Positions 3,301-32,200 of a DNA stretch of 32,273 nucleotides are shown here, piece after piece (the first letter of the stretch is position 1; each line of letters begins with the position of its first letter). Location of the stretch: contig JBBMKC010237128.1 of the NCBI GenBank assembly GCA_037834085.1, positions 1-32,273 on the forward strand, given 5' to 3'. The translations under genes were made by a program, and so were the position numbers. Below the pieces are notes generated by a model. It was not told the origin of the DNA. It ran no database searches and saw nothing but the letters and a program-made list of their open reading frames with translations. The DNA comes from Bipalium vagum. Its lineage: Eukaryota.

Positions 3301-6300
3301 ATTGTTTCTCGGAATAATCGGTGGTTGTTTGAGTATGTATAAAGTTTTCAGGAATTGTCTTTTCAGAAAAATCGTTTATACATTACCAACACCAAAAAAA
3401 TACGTAAATAAAAACTCCGCCTCTTCATTATCTTTTCACCGTCATACTATTGAGCATTAATATTTCAGCCTATTTTGAAGTTAAGGAGCAGGGATAAACA
3501 TTCCACCTAACAAGTATATCGACAAATATACAGAAATACAGCAAAGAATTTGATTATTCGAGAATGCTATTGCTCTGATTATCTGCTGCAAAATGAATCA
3601 AGTATTTTTCAATGTATTCGGTATTAGTTATTCCACAAGAATCAGTCACGGAAGAAGCCTGGTTGGAACATCAGCAAGAAAAAGTGTTTGTGCAATAAGA
3701 TTGAAAAATATACCGGTTTGTGCAGCAGTAACAAAATGTGGACTAATCTCTATTATCATATGTGATAAAGTGTACAATTCTGAAGGCTTTAATGCTTTGT
3801 GGATATGTTCACTAAATTAAAAGATAGTGGATTAACATCTGGAATAATAATTATTAATAATCCAAGAATCCACAAAACATCTGAAATTAGTAAAACAATA
3901 GAAGATCATCATTTCCAGTTGAGTTTTCCACCGACTTACTCACCACAACGGAATCCTATTGAAGAGGTTTTCGCAAAATGGAAATATTACATCAAAACAG
4001 GAAATACAAATACTATTGAAAAGTTAAATCAATGTATCAGAATTGCTAGTAAATCTATTTCCGCCAATGATTGTGAAGGATTTCTATAACATATACGATC
4101 ATTTGTGCTAAAAGGTATAAGAGAAGAAGATTTGTGATTACGTTTTTGATTTTGTCAAATAAAGTTTCTTCTATTTTACATATAATAATATTTTTTAATA
4201 TTGTTTTATATATAATAGTTTTTTTTACATATAATAATTATATTTTAATAAATATCAGATTATAATGAAGTAAAGTTTAATTAAGTTGTATAAAGCTTAA
4301 ATTAAATTGGATAAAACTTAATTTGAATTGAGTATAGTTTAGATTGTGAGTATAGATTATCAACCTTTAGCTACATGTAGATAAATATGATATGATTGTG
4401 CGATAACGGACGCCATCATATCGGTTAATCTTTGTATGTCCGTTTCCTTAAAGCCAAATCGACGGAGCACATTATCGTTTTCTGGATCCCAGGAGCCGAG
4501 GCACCCAAGATTAATCGTCCAGGTTAGATAATTTAAATTACATAATAAAAATAAATAATCAATCCATATTAAATCTCCAGAAAGAGGGTTGGAATTGAAA
4601 TTTCAATTTCAAAATTGAACCATAAAATTAGAAACTTTCAAAAAATAATAATGTACTCTATATGTTTATGAATATAGATTATAAAAGAAAAAGGAAATCC
4701 TTACATCAACGAAATCCAAAACGGAATCAAAATCCAGAGTATGAGTGATGTCAACATCTCCTAGAATTTACACAATGGATTTATCGAAAATCAATTATTT
4801 AACTATATAATAAAATGATCCTAGAATTATAAAACGAAAAATTAATATGGAATTTTCTAAATAATGAAAAAAAATTGATTATGGTTTTTCCCATATTTTA
4901 AGAAGTTCTTAATTAATAATATTCTGTTGCTTGCAGCAGATAGCATGATACATTTTTATTGAATTTTCATGTCGGAAAACAAGAATAATTTCATAGCAAC
5001 CACTACATAACTTTTGTTGTCTTAACCCAACTGAGACTTAAAAATGGGGAAAATTTCATTGGAGCGTATGAGAATGAAGTGCAACATTAAATATTTATTG
5101 TCAATATATTTACTCAATTCGAAAATTAATTTTTGGATTTCTTCAAATTGAATATTTTTTAATATTTATATTTAAATTTAATTAAATATTTATATTAAAA
5201 TAAATTATAATTATATTAAATTAAATATTTATATTTAATTAATTTTTTAAAAAAATAAGTTTTATTTTATTTCTGACCGATTATTAAGGTTGAAGACTTT
5301 CTTCTGTTAAAGCTTTAGTTTCAACTTCTACTAAGCAATTAAGAATCTGAACTATTCACAATGATTGTATAAAAAATAACAATCAATAAATATAAATAAT
5401 TATTTAAGAGATATGCTGGTTTAAAGTTTTATAGAAAAAATCAATATCATTAATTTATTAACAACTTAATAACAATTCAGTAATTGAAAGACATAAAATT
5501 TCCATAAAGAAAATCAATGAGAAATAAATACGTGGGAAAAACAGATAAACTATTTAATTATAATACAAAGAAAAATACAAATCTTACCATATGTAGCAGG
5601 AATGTCAATTTCAGGAACTTCTGCAACTCGAAAGTCTAAATGCAATGAGCCAGATAAAAAATCAATACCAAGACGTTACAGTGACAGAATACAATCCCAG
5701 TTAACAAATTTTTCATTTTTAAAAGTTTTCACCGTTAAAATCATTTAAGTTATTTTTATTATTCTTTTTCAAATTAATTATACTGCGATTTTATTTTTTA
5801 AATAATATGGAATTTAGATTATAATAACAAATAATTTTCAAAAACTAATAATAAAATAATCATCAAGATGACATTTATTTAATATTTGTTTAAAATTTCA
5901 CTTAATTAATTAAAATCAAAATTGAAAATTGTAATTTAATTTTAATATTTACAAAAATTAATATAAAAAATCATTATTTATTTTGAATCAATTTAAAATG
6001 TTCTGTCTACTGTCCAGTAATTGTTAGAAATGTAAGAATTAAGTTAATTCATGTGATACCATGCGATAGATTTCTTTTTAGTTTGACTTCATGAAGAAAA
6101 AGTACTTTATCAATATTATAAAATTCTTATATTTATTATTATATTTATACTTTATATAGCTTTAAATTATAGTTTTTCTTATGTTTCGATAAATTATAAA
6201 TTTTGAGGTTCTGCAAAAGTGATCTTACAAAGAAAGCAATAAGAAAAAGATTTATTCATTATAAATATATAATACAAATTTTTAAATAATTATTTTATTA

Positions 6301-6358
<58 letters not shown>

Positions 6359-8097
6359 ATTATATAATCTTTATTATTACTACTTTTCTTGTTATCAACA
6401 ATTCCTATTATTATTTATTTTGTGAATTTTTGATAACAAATAGGAAAACAATAATCAATAAAAATATTACTAAATATCATTGATTAAAATTTTAAATCAG
6501 ATAATTCATATGACTTAACATGTATATACGAGGGCGGTTCAGTAAGTCCGTTAAAAATAAAATAAATTGTAACGCTAGTAATTTTAAACTTTGGTAAAAA
6601 AACAATTTAGACATTAAAAATGTAAAAACCGAAATTTCAGATAAATACATAAAATTGTTTTAATTATTTTACATTTCAAAGTTTTCAATAACAATTATCA
6701 ATATGAAAATGGAAAATCACGAATTTAGAGTCCTCCTGAAATATTATTTTTTGAGAAGTAAAACAATCAGTGAGACAAATTTACGACTCATTAAATATTA
6801 TGGTGACTCCTTCCCATCACTCGGGATGATCCATAAATGGTTCACCAGATTTTGTTGTGGCAGTACAAGCACAGATAATTCCGCACGGTTTGATCGTCCA
6901 AATGAAGTGAAAACATCGGAAATTGTTCAAAAGATTCACGATATTGTTCTTAATGATCGACGAATCAAAGTGCGCGAGATAGCCCAGGCTGTTGGCATAT
7001 CAGTTTGATCAACATTTTCAATTTTGCATAAAGATTTGGAAATTCTGTCTGCGAGATGGATGCCGCGCTTGCTTTTTGTGAAAAAAAATTTAATTAATTT
7101 AATTCATAATTGTTCCATTTGTTTTTTATCAAAATAATTGATACTGAAATTGATAAATAAATTTCGACCTAATTAAAAAAGAATAAATAAGGACTCTTAC
7201 TGATTAAAAGAAATTTATTAATTTATAAATAGAAAAATGAACAAAAATTTAGACAGTATTTGATATTATATATAAAGAAAGAATTATCAATGAATAGAAT
7301 TTAAACAATAACAGATGTATTACCATGGTAGAGAGAAAACAATTATTATGACATTCAAAAAATAATATCATTGTTTTACTACGATATACCGATGCACAGT
7401 TAGTGAATTATTACAGTTTTCAATGAATTATTAATGAAAAAATTTTAAATATATTTTAGCATAATAAGTGTGCTATTGGAAAATGTAAAAAAGATTTCAT
7501 CTAAATTAAAAATAAGATTTCTGTATGTCTTGTGAAGATTTCGGTCTCGTTTGTTTCAGCTATATGGGTGATCGCTTCTATAATATACTCTTTTTAATAC
7601 ACAGCGTGTCTGTATGTTTCATTCATATCATTAAAACGTTCGGCTGAGAACATTTCAAACCTTTAGCAAATGATTTTTGACAAAATTGTTTGAATTTGTC
7701 GCAATTTTCGGTGAACGAGCACTTCTTTTATTTCTTTCACCGTTATCACCCTTTTCAGCAAACGATAGTACCCGATACATAGTTGATTTTAGCATGTTTT
7801 CGTCAGGAAAATGTTTGCGAGTAAAAATTTTCCTTAAATGTATATTTTTATTATAAAAATTTACTACACGATTCTTGAGTCATTTTTGAGAATATAATTA
7901 ATTTATAACACTGATATCTTTGTCTTACTTTATATAGCAATTTAAACAATGTGAATCAATTTAGCTTAATTTAACAAATATTATAATTAAGTTACTTAAC
8001 TTTAAAAAAAGTTCCAAATTTTATTTATAGGGTCTTATGTTCAGTTGCCTATGTAATTCTCTATTTGATGATGATGAGATGATTAACAACAACAACG

Positions 8098-8179
<82 letters not shown>

Positions 8180-11100
8180 TATGTCCATACAAAACCGGAC
8201 TAATTTAAAAGTTTTGTTCATAAATTTCAATTCACTTCAAATAAACCGATAATTTATGGATAGATATAAAAAATTCTGTTTTCGTTTTAATTGAAGTGTA
8301 TTAATTGATAATTATCAAAATTATATTTCAAAAAAATTACAATCATTTATAAATAATTTTGATTTTTAAAAAATGAAAGAGTTGTGAATGAATCGATTTT
8401 TTATAAAAATTGATTGAAAAAAAGTACAAAAATCATTGAATTTGAAAATAAATAAATATTTTTTTAAAAATATATATAAAACTCACTATTGTCAGGTGCC
8501 AAGTGGTTGAGAATAGCTTTCCTAAGAATATAAAATTTATTGCTCGGCCTTCCGTCTTCGGTAATCGGAGCATTATAATCGTAGCTTGTAGTGACAAAAG
8601 CAACTTTGTTATCTAGGTTGTTACCACCATTAATGAAACCAAAATTGGTGCCACCATGAAACATGTAAAGATTGAAACTGTATCCTCGTTTAAGAATGAG
8701 AGTTACCAAATGTCTAAATTCTAGCTATATTTTGACCACTATTCGTACTCAATTCATGTATGCTGCTTACCTTCGTCTGAAATGGCACTCTGTTTCGACA
8801 AATCCCAAGTTTGAAACCAACCAGTAAACAATTCAGAAATAAACACGGGACAATCTGGATCTAAGGCAGAAACCATTTGAACCATTTTGTCTATTTCATT
8901 TACTTTGTTCGTATTGATGGCAAAAAACACATCTGCATGATTTTACTGCGGTCAACCAATAAATAATTTAAGTAAAAATAAATTTTAATCAACTACCGAA
9001 AAAAAAACAAAACTATTTTCACTTGTTGCATGGCAAAAAAATATTTACAAAACTCAATAAAATAATATTTGTTTTGATGGATAATTTTTGATCAATTAAT
9101 ATTTAGTACTATGAATAATTTTGAAATTTAATAATAATAATAATAAATCAAAAATTTAAATAATAAATAAATTTAGTGAATAAAATTTAGTACTATGAAT
9201 AATTTTGAAATTTAATAATAATAATAATAAATCAAAATTATTGAATGATATATTATAGTTAATTAATTAATTTTAAAACTTCACGTTAACTTTAATTTTT
9301 GAATTGATTAGTAATAGAGATTTTATAACATTTTTATTTACTTTAACAAATTTAGAGGTCCGGAAAAAAAGAACAAAAAGAAAATACATGGTTTTAGTTT
9401 TTAAAAATAAGTTTTCATATTACTCAATGAATCTAATAAATGAATCAATTCGTTGAATACATTAAAAATTAAAAATCAATGAACAAAATATGAAGATTAA
9501 ATAGATTTTTGTTTTGAATCACATTTTATTTTGTTGCCCAAACCAGGCACGTTTACAGGTATCAAAACTATTTTTAAAAATTTTATATTACTAATTTGTA
9601 AATATATGTAAATACAAAAATATAATAAAATTGTTACTGTCAATTTTTTTCTGATTGACTATTCCCAAAATATTATTAGAAATAAACATCGATTCCACAA
9701 CTCCAGATCGGACGTATAACTGAAAAAGAATTCAGAAAATAAATCAATAAGGAACGCATTTAAAAAGTCGTGTTTAATGATTTAAGTGACAAAAAATGAA
9801 GAATTATCTCAAATTTCGGATAGGTTACGAAAGAAAATTGGTAAAAATTCTGAATTTGTAAAATCAATATAAAATATTGCTTCTGTCAAGTTCATAATTG
9901 ATTGAATAAATTAAGTATTTTGAATTCCTTGCATATTTTCTTGACTCGGAATGAGTGCTGTTTCATGAATCTCTAAATCAAATTTAAAGCTCTTTCAAAT
10001 CTCTTCTTGAGAAATTTTTTTATCTTGTACTTTTCTCGTCTCTTTCTAAAAACCCTAAACAAATTCATCTTCAACATCAAGAAGAAATATCAATAACTAT
10101 TGATAGAATCAGCATGATCATGATAGCATTGAAAATCTTTTAATTGAAACCAATTCCTAAGCCTTGTCTCATTGCTTTACAAAAACTGTCATAGTTTTGG
10201 TTAAAAATTAATTAATTATTCAATTTTTACATAATTACGCAGGTAAATCGATAATCATCGATTATAATATTAAAAAATTTACATAAAAATAAAACATTTC
10301 GAATTTGTAAGCAAATGACTTTCCATAATTTAAGTACATTAATTAATTTTATATTTTTTTTAAAAAAATTTTCTTTTCAACGGAAATCGACTGAAAACGA
10401 AATTTCCAGTGAAACTAACAGATACAAATAAATTGAACCCCTTAGGTCGTGATTATTAACTAAAAATCGATTATAGAAAAATTTGATAGAAAATGTGACA
10501 AATATAATGTCAAAAATTGTAAAATGTTTCGTGGAAAAATAATATCAAATTACTTCTTTCATAGCTTGCATGTATGATGGACTATTTCCAAAGGTTCCAT
10601 ATTCATTTTCGATTTGAAAAGCAATAATAGGACCGCCATTCGAGTGCTGAGTTGTAGAACAAACAAAAATAAGTTTTATGGGCATCAAAACATACCTGCA
10701 GATCATTCACTTCTCTAAGTATTTGTCTCAAGTATTCTTCAACTGGAACCATAAAACCCATATACATACTTCGAATTTTCATATTTGGATCAGCTAATAA
10801 CCAACTGCACACAAGGGATTAAAATTCACATCAGTTATATTCAATAGTTTTCAATAACCTAGGAAGACCACCAAATTCCAATTCTGCACAAATGTAAGGC
10901 CCGGGTCTAAGTATCACATAAAGTCCAATTTCTTGAGCGATTTGAACAAAGTTCCTTGGAATATATATTTAGATTTTTTGAAAAATTAATGAATAGAACT
11001 GAACAAAAATAGACATATTGCTTTCTACAGACGACCAAATATATAAAACGAGATCCAGGATTATTAATTTTGGATTTCTTATCATTGGAACTTTTATATT

Positions 11101-12160
11101 TTTATAATCAAAATAAGAGGGATTTGAAACTAAACTAAATTGAATGCATAGCATTGTTATTTAGAAATAATTAGTTAAAAATCTGTATTATTCTTATTAT
11201 CTTAATTACCATGCTTGGTGTTACACCAACCAAAAGTACAAAAGAAACTTAACAAAAGGAGATATCAGAAATTATTACTTGAGTGCTGTTAAAAACTTAA
11301 AAAGATTTATTAATCATAAAATATTTATCATAGTAAATATAATTCCAGGGATTTATGATGTATTAATGCTTCTATGGTTCCTAATACACACTCAATGTAA
11401 ATTTCCTTAAGCGGAATTTTATGCAATAAGCTTTTAAATTTGTCTTACTTTTCATTTAAAATATGTCAAAATCAACATGGCTTATCAGACTAGCACATTA
11501 AAAATTAAATGATTCCATGGGAAATTAATAAAAAACTATAATTTATCATTAAAAAATGAATGACATTTGTTTAAAAATTATAAAAAATGTATAAGTCATA
11601 AAATTGAGTGCAAAAATAAATGAGAACTTCAAAAATGCGATACCTTAGGAAATAATGCATAAGAAAGAATTTTTTATTGATATGTTACAATTTTAAAAAC
11701 AGTTCAAAAAGAAGTACCTGATGTTTAAGTTTCCCTCAAAATTATAATTTCCTTTTCTCTCTTCGTGCAAATTCCAAGGGCAATACCTACATTACATTTA
11801 TTACATACATTCACATAAATAAACTAAACGTTTCAACAGTATTCATTCCAGAGGCCTTCAGATATTTCAGTCGATCTTTCCACTGATCAGGTGGAACACG
11901 GAAGTAATGAACTGAACCACTTAAGATTTGAAAGGCCTCGTCTTTTAAAAAGAACATTTTCTTTCTATACGTTAAACTAGCCTGATTATTCGGAAAGGAT
12001 ATCAAATTATTTGAGATAGTTAAATTACTTTTTTAAAATTAAATTTCGCTGGGGTTTCATTAGTATTCAGTTTATAATGAATAAAAAATAAAGAGAGAAT
12101 GAAAAGAGTAATTAAAAATATGAACTTTTTCAAAACAATTTTATTCCATACAATCATCAT
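332..12160 (-). CDS. Glycoside hydrolase family 35 beta-galactosidase (GLB1/GLB1L2-3-like), multi-exon, 3' end outside the window
   Basis: Hand-spliced exons: 12160-12029, 11981-11830, 11786-11718, 10954-10859, 10804-10696, 10646-10554, 9719-9638, 8932-8771, 8720-8487, 5635-5588, 4760-4705, 787-638, 588-484, 434-332. All introns are GT-AG with consistent phases; 1591 coding nt (530 codons) and no stop. GH35 motifs occur in the expected order: [59 protein letters not shown] (acid/base Glu), SELFTGWF (nucleophile Glu), [59 protein letters not shown]. Exon 1 encodes a hydrophobic N-terminal segment. Confidence 0.95.
2050..2770 (-). mobile_element. Degenerate mariner transposase (Hsmar1/cecropia-like) in GH35 intron
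   Basis: Minus-strand translation with stops and frameshifts: [92 protein letters not shown]. These match mariner WVPHEL, VTCDEKW, VWW and HDNARPH. Confidence 0.88.
3100..4356 (+). mobile_element. Degenerate IS630-like/Tc1 DD34E transposon (DDE_3 type)
   Basis: The frameshifted ORFs 3593-3820 and 3799-4089 read [70 protein letters not shown]. There are 34 residues between the decayed second Asp position and the Glu. Degenerate ~20-bp repeats lie at about 4270-4356. Ends are approximate. Confidence 0.8.
4360..4524 (-). mobile_element. C-terminal fragment of an RLE-endonuclease non-LTR retrotransposon (NeSL/R5/Utopia-like)
   Basis: GC-richer island translating without stops: [54 protein letters not shown]. 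This resembles the G.LGSW.P.N...L..LG...S..IY..H tail of R2-superclade RLE domains (from memory). Confidence 0.72.
6296..6356. repeat. (TTA)n microsatellite
   Basis: Visible directly; explains the spurious poly-Leu ORF 6301-6483. Confidence 0.95.
6529..7080 (+). mobile_element. 5' portion of an irritans-subfamily (Himar1/Hsmar2-like) mariner
   Basis: TA followed by a TIR-like CGAGGGCGGTTCAGTAAGTCCG at 6527-6550. ORF 6703-7008 [45 protein letters not shown] parallels the Himar1 N-terminus. It continues past a stop to [10 protein letters not shown] and is then truncated. Confidence 0.9.
7500..7885 (-). mobile_element. Tc1/mariner-superfamily transposase N-terminal relic
   Basis: Minus strand reads [43 protein letters not shown], an HTH plus a decayed GRPR-like motif, with stops. 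Confidence 0.55.
8086..8180. repeat. (AAC)n(AAT)n microsatellite
   Basis: Visible directly; explains the poly-Asn and poly-Leu ORFs. Confidence 0.95.
9101..9237. repeat. Identical 53-bp direct repeat (9101-9153 and 9185-9237)
   Basis: ATTTAGTACTATGAATAATTTTGAAATTTAATAATAATAATAATAAATCAAAA occurs twice with an 84-bp period. Confidence 0.93.
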
Positions 12161-20300: not shown

Positions 20301-21823
20301 ACCACCATACCTTAAAAAAGTACTATTTTAACTGAAACTTTGTATATTGACTGATTGATATCAAAAAAATTATTTTACCAAATGATCATGATCGATAAAT
20401 CCATAATGTATAAATGTACAATGAGTGAATTCACTCTATGGTTGTGTGAACAATTATTGAGATTGTTGATTATTAATACACTGAGTTTTGTACAGTTACA
20501 TTATAAAATCATTTAATCTGTTAATATTTAAAAATACTGATAAATTTTCTCCCTAACGATTATTCATAAGAGCTTAATTGATTGATAATTTTATTTAAGT
20601 GACATCTATTTCTGTTGTCTTGCTAGTTATTATTGGTGAAAATTTTATTTGATTCTCTTCGATTATCATTTTTTTAATTTTACAGTTGACTGAATAAATA
20701 CAGTCAAAGCAAAATCTGTCAACGTTTTAAACAAGTAAAATTAAAATTTTAAACCAATGTCTGCTAATAATACAGCTAGATTCTTATAACTAAAAATAAT
20801 ATCTAAATCACTTTATCTGAAAATTGATTTTCTTAAAATGACATTATAAATAAATTTTGAAAATTATCATCAAATCAATAACAATATCCAAAAATAATAT
20901 GAAACCAAATCTGAATTTGGCAACGTGAAAAATTGTCATTGTCAAATAAAAAAAAATTATTCGTTTATTGGGAACTATTTTTTAAGAATATAAATATTAT
21001 TGAAACAATTTTTGTGCAAAAGATAAACCATCATCACCATAAAACAAATAATTGATCATTCACCAAAGTTAAGTCAGTAATCCGTAAAAATAAAGTCAGA
21101 GTGATAGATATACCCAAAAGCAAAGATATGCAAATCCCTCTGTTTACCAAGGAAACTTACCACTTACCACACATCTTCAGGTAAAGGGAAATCTACCTTT
21201 CCTGAACATTAAGCTGCTAACGAGTATTAGGATGAAAAAATTGCGAAAGTAGATAAAGTCGAAATATCAAAGCTTTGGAGATTATTTTCAAAAATTTAAC
21301 TTTTCCACATTTAAGAACTTACATTTTCGTTTTGATAATCATTTTGTAAATGCATACTTTCAATTTTTATTATGAACTTGTCTGCCATGTAATTTGGATT
21401 CTAAATTCATTTAAGATTTAAAAAATTTCCGTATAATTTTACCTCCAATATTGTTCTACAATATGGATAAGCATTCCAGGCCTTTTCAACAATTTCTAAA
21501 GAGTTTTTAGGCGCTAAATATCGTATAAAAGTTGGAATTTTTTGTTCTAAATAATAAATTTTGTAGGTAAACTGTCCTCGTTCATATAAATGGGAATCCT
21601 TTTTTAATGGAGTTTCAGGAGGATTTATTTCAGAATCAAATGGTTCGTTCTTAACCACTTCAATTCCTTCTCCACCACCTGTTTCACTTTTTGACATTTC
21701 AGCAACACTCCATAACTGTGCTATATGATATTCTTCGACTGTCATAGGTAAAATAATTCGACTAAATATAATATTTAAATATAATATTTAATAAGCAACT
21801 ACTAACAATTCTCTAATAATCAT
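17342..21823 (-). CDS. Class I phosphatidylinositol transfer protein (PITP alpha/beta-like), 7 exons, 281 aa
   Basis: Exons: 21823-21807, 21761-21443, 21400-21323, 19730-19566, 19191-19096, 19048-18926, 17389-17342 (ends TAA); 846 nt in total. All introns are GT-AG (45, 42, 1592, 374, 47, 1536 nt). Translation: [123 protein letters not shown], matching metazoan PITP along its full length. Confidence 0.96.
17676..18425 (-). mobile_element. Non-autonomous pogo/Tigger-type element (750 bp) with TIRs and TA target duplication, in the last PITP intron
   Basis: Left end TA|CAGGTAAACCTTTAATTAACGAA; reverse complement of the right end TA|CGGGTAAACCTGTATTTAACGAA (3 mismatches in 23 nt). Subterminal GTTCGTT motifs are repeated. 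An internal minus-strand [12 protein letters not shown] resembles a CENP-B HTH. Confidence 0.85.
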
Positions 21824-29880: not shown

Positions 29881-30080
29881 TTTTTAATTTTATATTTCTA
29901 AAATATAACTAAGACATAGAACGTACATTAGAAAAAATTAATATTTTATCAAAATAATTTAAACATGGAAACAAAAATGTGCATAAGATTAATTAAATAG
30001 CGCTTTATTCAAACTAAGAACAACTGATTAATATGAATGTGTTAAACAATTCATATTTAGGAATAAAATAGTTTATATTA

Positions 30081-30304
30081 CAGGGTTATGCTGAAATATA
30101 TAGAAAAATATTCATAAATATATAATGGAAATAAATTCTTGTCTCGCCAAAAACAGTTGACAAATCAATGAAACCTGACATTTTAATAGCAACCGTGCAG
30201 CTGATATTTTTGGCTGACTGAAATGTGATCAAATATAAATAGAAAAAATCGAATTTTTAAAATATATTTGTAAATATTTTTCTATATATTTCTTCATAAA
30301 CCTG
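30081..30304. mobile_element. MITE-like foldback element (~224 bp) with ~45-bp inverted arms and TA flanks
   Basis: Left arm TA|CAGGGTTATGCTGAAATATATAGAAAAATATTCATAAATATAT; reverse complement of the right arm TA|CAGGTTTATGAAGAAATATATAGAAAAATATTTACAAATATAT. Confidence 0.75.
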
Positions 30305-31183
30305 TAACGAATAACACTATAAATCTAATAAATTAAATATTTTGAATATATTTTGTAAAATCACAGAAAATCGATCAACACTTGTTACAGAAAATAAAAA
30401 TCCCTTTCTTCCCAAAGAGATGAAAGGTATAATGTATATAATGAAGTCATCATTGAATATTGAGGATAGTCCCTAGATACGTCTTCTTATACCAATGATT
30501 GCTAACTCCGTTTTATAGTACAATTTCTGATACTAAGAAATACTGTTCTCTCTATATCAGATTTATTCTCCATTCAACAAAATTTATATTTATACTTACA
30601 AGGCTTTTCGATATTATTATACTAGGGATTCTTAATTTTCTCATTGTAATTACAAAGTATATTAATAATTAATGAGATATACCTAAGATCATTCATACGT
30701 TCAATTACAAAACGAGGAAAATATTTTTATATTAAAATAATTCTGTTTCCATATAAATCATAAAAATAAAAAAGAAGAAAACCGTTTTTTTAGATTTCAC
30801 CATAATTTGAGATTATTTTAATTTAATTTTAATTAAAATTAATTTAAGTTATGAGATAATTCGAGGCATTTTTATCTGGGAAAGACAAATATCTTATTAT
30901 TATAATAAAACAGAAATAGAGGTAATGTGCTAAAAATAAGAGGATATACGATAAGCATTCGAATGTCATAACAATTTTCAAAAAAAAATTGATAAGTAAG
31001 TTTGGGAATTATAGTGGTTTCCGAAGATTACATTTTCAATATTTTCTAGTAAAGTAATCATAGCATTAAATTTCATTGAAAGACTTTCTATCATATTCAG
31101 CGCAACGGTTAACTCTTGACATTACAGGCATTACTTATATTTATTTTGTAAATAAATATCATACAGCGTTCACACTTAAATGT

Positions 31184-31309
31184 TGTTAGTTGAAAATTAT
31201 TCGGAGATACTGGGATTCAGGGGATGTAGCTCAGCGGTCAGAGCAGTCCATGCGCATGCGAATGTCCAGGGTTTGAATCCCGGTATCTCCGAATAATTTT
31301 CAACTAACA
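31184..31309. repeat. 36-bp inverted repeat (31184-31219 / 31274-31309) enclosing the tRNA 5' part
   Basis: TGTTAGTTGAAAATTATTCGGAGATACTGGGATTCA versus the reverse complement of the right arm, TGTTAGTTGAAAATTATTCGGAGATACCGGGATTCA: 35/36 identical. Confidence 0.97.
31220..31291 (+). tRNA. tRNA-Ala(CGC), degenerate (probable pseudogene or tRNA-derived element)
   Basis: Sequence GGGGATG TA GCTC AGCGGTCA GAGC A GTCCA TGCGCAT GCGAA TGTC CAGGG TTTGAAT CCCGG TATCTCC G. The acceptor stem has the Ala identity pair G3.U70, the D-stem is intact and the anticodon is CGC (31253-31255). However, the anticodon stem pairs only 2 of 5, U33 is G, the T-loop TTC is TTT and the discriminator is G. Confidence 0.85.
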
Positions 31310-31499
31310 TTAAGACCACACTAAGATACCAAACAGTGCAAAATTTTATTTAAGTTTCTCCAGTTATTTCAGTCTAAGTACTTTTTAGTCTTGGCATGTA
31401 GGTATAAAATGTATTGTATAGAATGCATAAAATATTAAATAAGTATTAAACGTACGATTACTTTAAAAATTCTGAATTTTGTTTGCAATATAATTTTAA

Positions 31500-32200
31500 T
31501 TCAAAAATATGGAATTTCTCAGTGTTATTTCTCAAGTAATCTGACAAGTAGGAAATTATTAATCAGCTTCAAGGGGTATATGATAAAAAGTCCTATCTCA
31601 GGTGACCATTTAAAAATACATCCAAGAATTTTCATCTTGTTGAAAGTGTTTTGATGCAACCAAAAAAAGATAACTTAAGAAGACATGTCGAAATTAAAAA
31701 AAAATAATAAAGAATTGAAAAATATTGTGAAAAATCAAAGAAACGTTACTCAAACGCACGGGCTAAATGTATTCAAAAGAACAATCAGCTGCTTCTGGAG
31801 CAAAAAATTTTTTTAATCGAATATTATAACTGTCTATCTTTTGTACTCTAAAAGAGAGTCAAAGAAATGGGGTTTTGAAAATTATAAGCCGTCTAAGGTA
31901 TTTCGTTTCAGACTTTCGGATCGAAAATGTGCCTTGTTGAATATCTTTTGGGATAAAAATATAATCTTGAAGCTAGATTTAACTGAAAAAATTCGGATTA
32001 GTACAGTAATCCCATACTTGAGACTCGAAACATCCGACACAAGTCACGCAAACAGGAGGTTTTTTTGCTCCACGGTAACGCTCCTAATCCCATATTCAAG
32101 AAAACACAAGACACATTAACAAAAGTTGTGTGCAGATATCAAAATTCTTTTGAATGCTGAACATAGGACCAACAACAATCTTTTCATCAGGTAATACAAT
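31500..32200 (+). mobile_element. Degenerate mariner transposase
   Basis: NQLQGVYD..SQVTI*KYIQEFSS (HTH region); ORF 31841 SKRESKKWGF..PSKVFRFRLSDRK..NIFWDKNII.KLD, matching SK.QS..W..PK..S..K...FWD; ends near a decayed FHQ(DNA) motif. Confidence 0.72.

Follow-up and report, generated by a model that had tools for sequence, protein, structure and literature searches.

The closest described systems are the Helenus elements (TRIMp3; Kojima 2024, PMC10886601), an element kind which is already known and published. According to the accessible part of that description, Helenus elements are non-coding and shorter than 1 kb, they contain two LTRs with tRNA-like A and B boxes and a non-functional tRNA fold, and they have a primer-binding site for a tRNA 3' end, a purine tract and many solo LTRs. 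All these traits are likewise found in the repeat family reported here, whose two-LTR copies measure 310-362 bp. Priming by tRNA-Arg has been reported in wasp Helenus and, in Table S1 of the same source, every animal Helenus row with a value gives a target duplication of 4 bp, 5 bp being the fungal and plant value, whereas our family duplicates 5 bp (PMC10886601). Pol III transcription of Helenus itself is given as unproven in section 4.1, and no fold-back Helenus copies are described in the accessible part of the paper. The TRIMs Cassandra and Ajax likewise carry a small-RNA promoter inside the LTR, but it is derived from 5S and not from a tRNA; Ajax, found in animals, duplicates 5 bp (PMC10886601). 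The tRNA-derived SINEs, in turn, likewise possess a tRNA-like head with A and B boxes (PMC10886601). As regards the inverted arm treated below, the accessible parts of a study of break-induced fold-backs in yeast and of one on four-point template switches describe events which likewise produce a short, nearby-templated inverted duplication with a loop of tens of bases and microhomology at the joint; however, those events were observed in experiments or recognised by comparison with a known ancestor, whereas ours are inferred from two copies of a repeat family (PMC11724301, PMC5453318). In the titles and abstract openings of the literature searched, no fold-back copies of a tRNA-bearing TRIM were described.

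The stretch analysed (hereafter the window) comprises 32,273 nucleotides of a 441-Mb assembly of Bipalium vagum and is AT-rich, with a G+C content of 16-34% per kb. Apart from the repeat it contains a PITP exon, whose best named matches are crustacean, mollusc and flatworm proteins (57-70%) and which marks the host as an animal, two GH35 exons and transposase remnants (Table 1), and a Pfam search with five ORFs at 23-32 kb gave no match. A very AT-rich, MITE-like structure with inverted arms of 55 nt, 84% complementary and spaced by 120 nt, was observed at 30078-30307. Summed contig depth of sequencing run X1 was raised at 31544-31600, which suggests another repeat about 230 nt to the right of the element.

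An earlier note on this DNA had taken the unit near the right end of the window for a decayed tRNA-Ala gene or SINE, folded back on an inverted copy of its own 3' end. By comparison with its genomic relatives, the unit is instead a rearranged and cut-short LTR from a tRNA-bearing LTR retrotransposon of high copy number and without genes, that is, from a Helenus-type TRIM. The involvement of a retroelement, also proposed in that note, is thus borne out by the anatomy of the LTR family. A genome search with the unit listed 2027 candidates; 40 of these were scored. The family LTR is about 115 bp long, begins with TG and ends with CA; in it, a 25-nt leader precedes the tRNA-like core, which is followed by a tail of 18 nt. 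LTRs are either solitary or arranged as direct repeats enclosing an internal region of 132 bp, which starts with TGG, ends in a purine tract and, because of its length, has no room for gag or pol. Two-LTR copies were found at L019 and L023 (362 bp each), L021 (338 bp), L060 (318 bp) and L036 (310 bp). The LTRs of L019 differ at 1 of 115 sites, and both were called as tRNA by ARAGORN, with the type undetermined. Among 59 full-length LTR copies there were 26 solo LTRs, 15 5' LTRs, 17 3' LTRs and one middle LTR; the purine tract was present in 17 of the 59, all classed as 3', and in addition at the middle one. An exact 5-bp target duplication was detected around 15 of the 26 solo LTRs, and one with at most one mismatch around 22 (0.6 and 2.1, respectively, in shuffles), while a 4-bp duplication fitted 1/26. 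The primer-binding site matches the 3' end plus CCA of tRNA-Arg(ACG), for which a genomic tRNA lies at L101, at 17 of 18 positions. The normal 5' end gave 163 genomic matches as an exact 36-mer and 350 as a 14+13 pattern, and the family has at least several hundred copies in the genome.

On these traits the family is by definition a Helenus-type TRIM, its 5-bp duplication lying within the 4-6 bp of the Helenus definition, but to judge from the duplications it is none of the published animal lineages, because the animal rows of Table S1 give 4 bp. Its LTR (115 bp) is near the smallest Helenus listed in the accessible part of PMC10886601 and amounts to almost only a tRNA plus an extended acceptor stem. 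Three family motifs were absent from the accessible supplement of that paper, where line breaks could hide a match.

A tRNA-derived SINE was considered and rejected because of the fixed 25-nt leader, the CA end and the fixed 5-bp duplications. Such SINEs start at the tRNA head, end in an A-rich or simple-repeat tail and have duplications of variable length. Foldback and MITE DNA transposons have inverted arms, as does this one window copy. In contrast to SINE, Foldback and MITE elements, the family shows TG...CA direct repeats, a primer-binding site, a purine tract and fixed 5-bp duplications, with no poly-A or simple-repeat tail, and unlike in Foldback and MITE elements the arm layout has not been multiplied.

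Several observations concern the wider setting of the family. The T4 run of the window tail (31297-31300) and of the family tails might terminate Pol III transcription within the 5' LTR, ahead of the primer-binding site; a mobile RNA would need read-through. A second subfamily of the tRNA-bearing TRIM (loci in Table 1) differs in its leader and in its tail, which lacks the T4 run, and its primer-binding site matches tRNA-Arg at 18/18. Two other LTR families carry the same primer-binding site (L104, L123, L128 and L130; L106, L114, L118, L119 and L129). Their copies enter unrelated sequence after 18-19 nt of that site, as captured plus-strand strong-stop DNA would, with the limit that the search pattern itself selected LTRs stopping there. 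A zinc knuckle lies downstream of L128 and an RT-RNase H frame near L104, which makes their families candidate mobilisers of the TRIM. In published animal Helenus lineages the primer-binding site is common to the TRIM and an autonomous Gypsy element; here, no intact autonomous partner was found among the LTR families sharing the primer-binding site. At L100 (about 1460-1530) and L099, some 30-40 nt of the tRNA-Arg 3' end with a non-encoded CCA are joined to a reversed-looking LTR end, a match of 9 nt in L100. Both are apparent captured primer-cDNA junctions and would therefore support priming by tRNA-Arg. Finally, L011, L138, L139, L144 and L145 hold the T-arm and tail only, and the last four have a common, different upstream sequence, possibly marking a third chimeric family.

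Table 1. Features of the window, with the loci of the second subfamily
Feature	Position or loci	Strand	Basis or remark
DDE_3 and Mos1-HTH transposase remnants	3793-4089 and 6664-7008	+	
GH35 beta-galactosidase exons (two)	8464-8724 and 11811-12032	-	
PITP exon	21407-21787	-	
Left flank	31171..31183	.	CACACT and TTAA without shown role
Inverted copy of LTR 3' end (T-loop, T-stem, acceptor 3' strand, tail to terminal CA); left arm	31184..31219	-	
Junction microhomology, 2-5 nt fitting inverted arm and native leader alike	31215..31219	.	leader tallies, BLAST, L007
tRNA-Ala-like core of LTR: A box, B box with one change, anticodon arm broken	31220..31291	+	Rfam
10-nt palindrome in anticodon arm, family trait	31249..31258	.	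46/85 copies
LTR 3' tail with T4 run, ends in terminal CA	31292..31309	+	tail and end shared with other family copies
Decayed 18-nt primer-binding site for tRNA-Arg, then 9 nt of internal region; element cut off after	31310..31336	+	
Second-subfamily loci	L103, L111, L117, L121, L122, L125-L127, L131		

The inverted repeat claimed for the window is present. Its arms, the left one and its partner at 31274-31309, are 36 nt long, complementary at 35/36 positions (97%) and separated by a spacer of 54 nt; DNA folding gave a z of -9.6 against shuffles, and 0/200 shuffles were as good. The left arm occupies the place of the normal 25-nt leader and gave a reverse BLAST match to positions 81-115 of the L019 LTR, with which the alignment agrees. 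The core scored 35.7 bits with the Rfam tRNA model (RF00005) and has 84-95% matches to many genomic copies, and its acceptor pair is one which we take to be of the G3:U70 type, after the identity rule for tRNA-Ala. A functional tRNA-Ala gene has a cloverleaf with an intact anticodon arm and an A discriminator. Such a gene was rejected here, as ARAGORN did not call the unit in the window, the anticodon arm was unaligned in Rfam, the predicted fold lacked a cloverleaf and the discriminator is G. A search for a true tRNA-Ala gene for comparison gave 0 matches, an uninformative result.

Most of the motifs listed in the earlier note were recovered and several changed their meaning. The A box and most of the B box are indeed kept, and TTAA, CACACT and the palindrome were all found at the coordinates first given, although the palindrome is a trait of the family and not a private one. 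Nor are the two supposed signs of decay private: the G discriminator is carried by 54 of 60 family copies and the T-loop T by 14 of 45. What had been read as an 18-nt trailer of a tRNA gene is really the 3' end of the LTR, in a form shared by 11/42 family copies.

The statement that the junction falls exactly at position +1 of the tRNA cannot be established, because its last 2-5 bases fit the native leader too. Among 83 leaders, TC stood at -3/-2 in 65 and six ended in TCA; the last five letters of the L007 leader are the same as the junction letters of the window, and the forward BLAST match of the window LTR begins at 31217. The arm base said to share the T-loop change (A31219) is the last base of the junction and could derive from the native leader.

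The right flank was compared with the primer-binding site and internal start of L019 and agreed at 20/27 positions, the best value elsewhere in the window on both strands being 16/27. The primer-binding site is decayed (12/18), and positions 19-27, read by hand, fit the internal region (8/9) better than a continuation of the tRNA (5/9); beyond 31336 the window holds no further family match. The right CACACT (31317-31322) corresponds to positions 8-13 of the decayed primer-binding site, and as a consequence the two CACACT motifs do not form the target-site duplication for which they had been taken. By chance, 13-nt flanks of random site pairs have a 6-mer in common in 4.9% of cases, a value which falls to 1.0% once this right flank is fixed. 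On the left, the TGT at 31181-31183 may be a remnant of the original LTR start. TTAAA and TTAAG would give a 5-bp duplication around the retained TGT with 4/5 matches, close to what chance gives (about 7% per register in shuffles), which is at odds with the primer-site match of the right flank. The window copy is truncated and has neither a second LTR nor a purine tract, and it would therefore not be expected to transpose. In contigs of run X1, which probably represents the source sample, each unique flank was tied to its own arm with no differences. Among the X1 contigs listed no piece spans the junction, but this gap carries no evidential weight, as contig assembly typically discards single-copy paths that lie between repeats of high depth.

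The fold-back layout is rare. A pattern for the inverted tail matched three loci (the window, L031 and L033) against 350 normal 5' ends found with a pattern of equal length. A pattern for the T-stem arm matched two loci, the window and L008, whereas two intact tail arms were found in the window locus alone. A looser pattern covering both subfamilies added only L133, and of the 323 candidates from the junction query 40 were scored, none of them a further match across the junction. Exact patterns miss diverged copies (the inverted-tail and two-arm patterns miss L008), so that the fold-back counts are lower bounds. L008 shows the same layout with 5-8 nt of leader kept, other flanks and arms that differ at 5/34 positions; no 5-bp duplication was found around it. 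The other three candidates were discarded as fold-back copies: L033 is a short, diverged match, L133 an internal deletion, and in L031 the LTR body and the internal region lie in opposite orientation, with the switch at the native repeat. This last arrangement, at the leader/tail inverted repeat of the LTR, was observed at L031 (722-917) and at L095 (286-502), one locus per mirror type, L095 being the one locus that the mirror pattern matched and another inversion. We count two independent fold-back events, which as a minimum estimate corresponds to a frequency of the order of 1% of copies.

As for the source of the left arm, it was probably copied from the 3' end of the window copy itself, as had been claimed, since the arms are one edit apart and unbiased tails are farther away: among 27 tails fetched by 5' patterns, one lay within one edit of the right arm and none within one edit of the left arm. 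Our preferred explanation, to which we assign a probability of roughly 0.6, is a single chromosomal event of DNA synthesis, either by fold-back or by template switching, that gave rise to the inverted arm. In this scenario, a bottom-strand 3' end, left by a break or by fork stalling a few bases upstream of the tRNA-like +1, would anneal over 2-5 nt to the unpaired T-loop of its own strand, some 54 nt distant; a polymerase would then copy 31-36 nt up to the LTR end, and the new end would rejoin the left flank, perhaps aided by the 5-of-6 likeness of the LTR termini. In single-stranded DNA folding of a normal LTR, the leader pairs with the tail and the T-arm folds with an open loop. Other inversions at this inverted repeat of the LTR, those of L031 and L095, are further in favour of the chromosomal reading. 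According to the accessible parts of the two reports, break-induced fold-backs in yeast are mostly 5-34 bp long, with a 41-nt loop and 0-5 bp of microhomology at the rejoined end (PMC11724301), and a four-point template-switch model covers the replication version (PMC5453318). The right flank enters the internal region, and a genomic or full-length copy is therefore favoured as the substrate. Among 69 copies with an intact 3' end, a sample biased in that it was chosen by similarity to the window, 31 were cut or rearranged on the 5' side, many of them near the T-arm.

Several findings speak against the chromosomal origin. Both fold-back arms stop exactly at the LTR terminus and both junctions lie at most 8 nt from +1; for the stop, the chromosomal model needs the likeness of the termini, whereas strong-stop cDNA predicts both the stop and the position of the junction. 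The TGT at the arm end of the window is duplicated and not shared, the right flank is more diverged (7/27) than the LTR (5% from its best match), and the whole rests on two events. The template within the same copy is also less certain than the arms suggest, as at least 12 other genomic copies show no difference from the left arm along 35-36 nt and the arms of L008 are no closer to each other than random copies. These last two facts would suit a templated insertion, or a nested fragment, from another family copy joined by microhomology. However, the window copy's own tail is within one edit of the left arm, as none of the 27 unbiased tails is, and nesting would leave a leader on the left side, where there is none, so that we regard such an insertion as highly improbable. 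Identity of the left arm to tails of other copies, together with the missing span among the listed X1 contigs, would also be expected if an assembly or library artefact had joined the tail of a reverse-oriented copy to another forward copy. This we consider improbable: the arms resemble each other more than they resemble unbiased copies, the X1 contigs link each flank to its arm as described, the left flank is no inverted copy of the right one, as a simple library fold-back would give, and L008 has the diverged arms of an aged fold-back.

The stop at the terminus, with junctions between -8 and +1, is what would result from snap-back of minus-strand strong-stop cDNA made on a Pol III transcript, followed by genome capture or recombination. 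If Pol III started a few bases before +1, the first cDNA would end there, fold onto its own T-loop and then be elongated as far as the LTR end at which its primer had been attached. The apparent primer-cDNA junctions with a non-encoded CCA at L099 and L100 would agree with such an origin, and so would the LTRs that stop after 18-19 nt of the primer-binding site, given that the pattern selected for these. Nevertheless, we hold snap-back, the chief rival, to be possible but doubtful. Strong-stop cDNA has no internal sequence, and the right flank enters the internal region; there is no 5-bp duplication at L008 and a doubtful one (4/5) around the window copy; the 5' cut points are not piled up at -8 to +3, where only 1/31 falls, L008 itself; and a mirror-type inversion exists (L095). 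In a slightly more doubtful extension of it, the fold-back copies would be the remains of strong-stop cDNA which had primed itself and which stemmed from an LTR element transcribed by Pol III; their junctions would mark the Pol III start, in an animal lineage whose 5-bp-duplicating integrase is unlike that of published animal Helenus.

The earlier note had proposed, besides snap-back synthesis, a tRNA-derived fold-back mobile element, and a hairpin that could yield small RNAs against tRNA-Ala. The predicted hairpin is strong, since a read-through RNA would form a 36-bp stem with a z of -11.2, and L008 offers a second similar layout. Because the left arm, which lacks an A box, precedes the predicted start of Pol III, the hairpin would form only in read-through RNA begun further upstream. 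For a mobile element, five aimed searches yielded only the window and L008, against 350 normal 5' ends; these two differ in junctions and flanks, with no third copy, and CACACT gives it no target duplication; for a selected hairpin, the small RNAs would match the repeat family first. We accordingly give next to no weight to either. The outcome is close to the case which the note had itself set against its proposal, a one-off template-switch scar, there being two copies with differing junctions.

Chromosomal fold-back or template-switch synthesis thus remains our preferred reading, and the window copy is most likely a rare scar of DNA copying or repair and not a new kind of element. As found, its fold-back has little significance, being one damaged copy among at least several hundred. 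If snap-back were true, such scars would be a DNA-only readout of the Pol III start, an open point according to the accessible part of PMC10886601; the start of a Helenus-type element is not known to have been mapped, and the junctions would mark one. For work on this genome, caution is needed because tRNA-like matches can be retrotransposon LTRs. The family itself usefully adds to the Helenus record an animal case that duplicates 5 bp, has an LTR close to the minimum, finds its matching tRNA-Arg in the host genome and has left apparent fossils of primer-cDNA.
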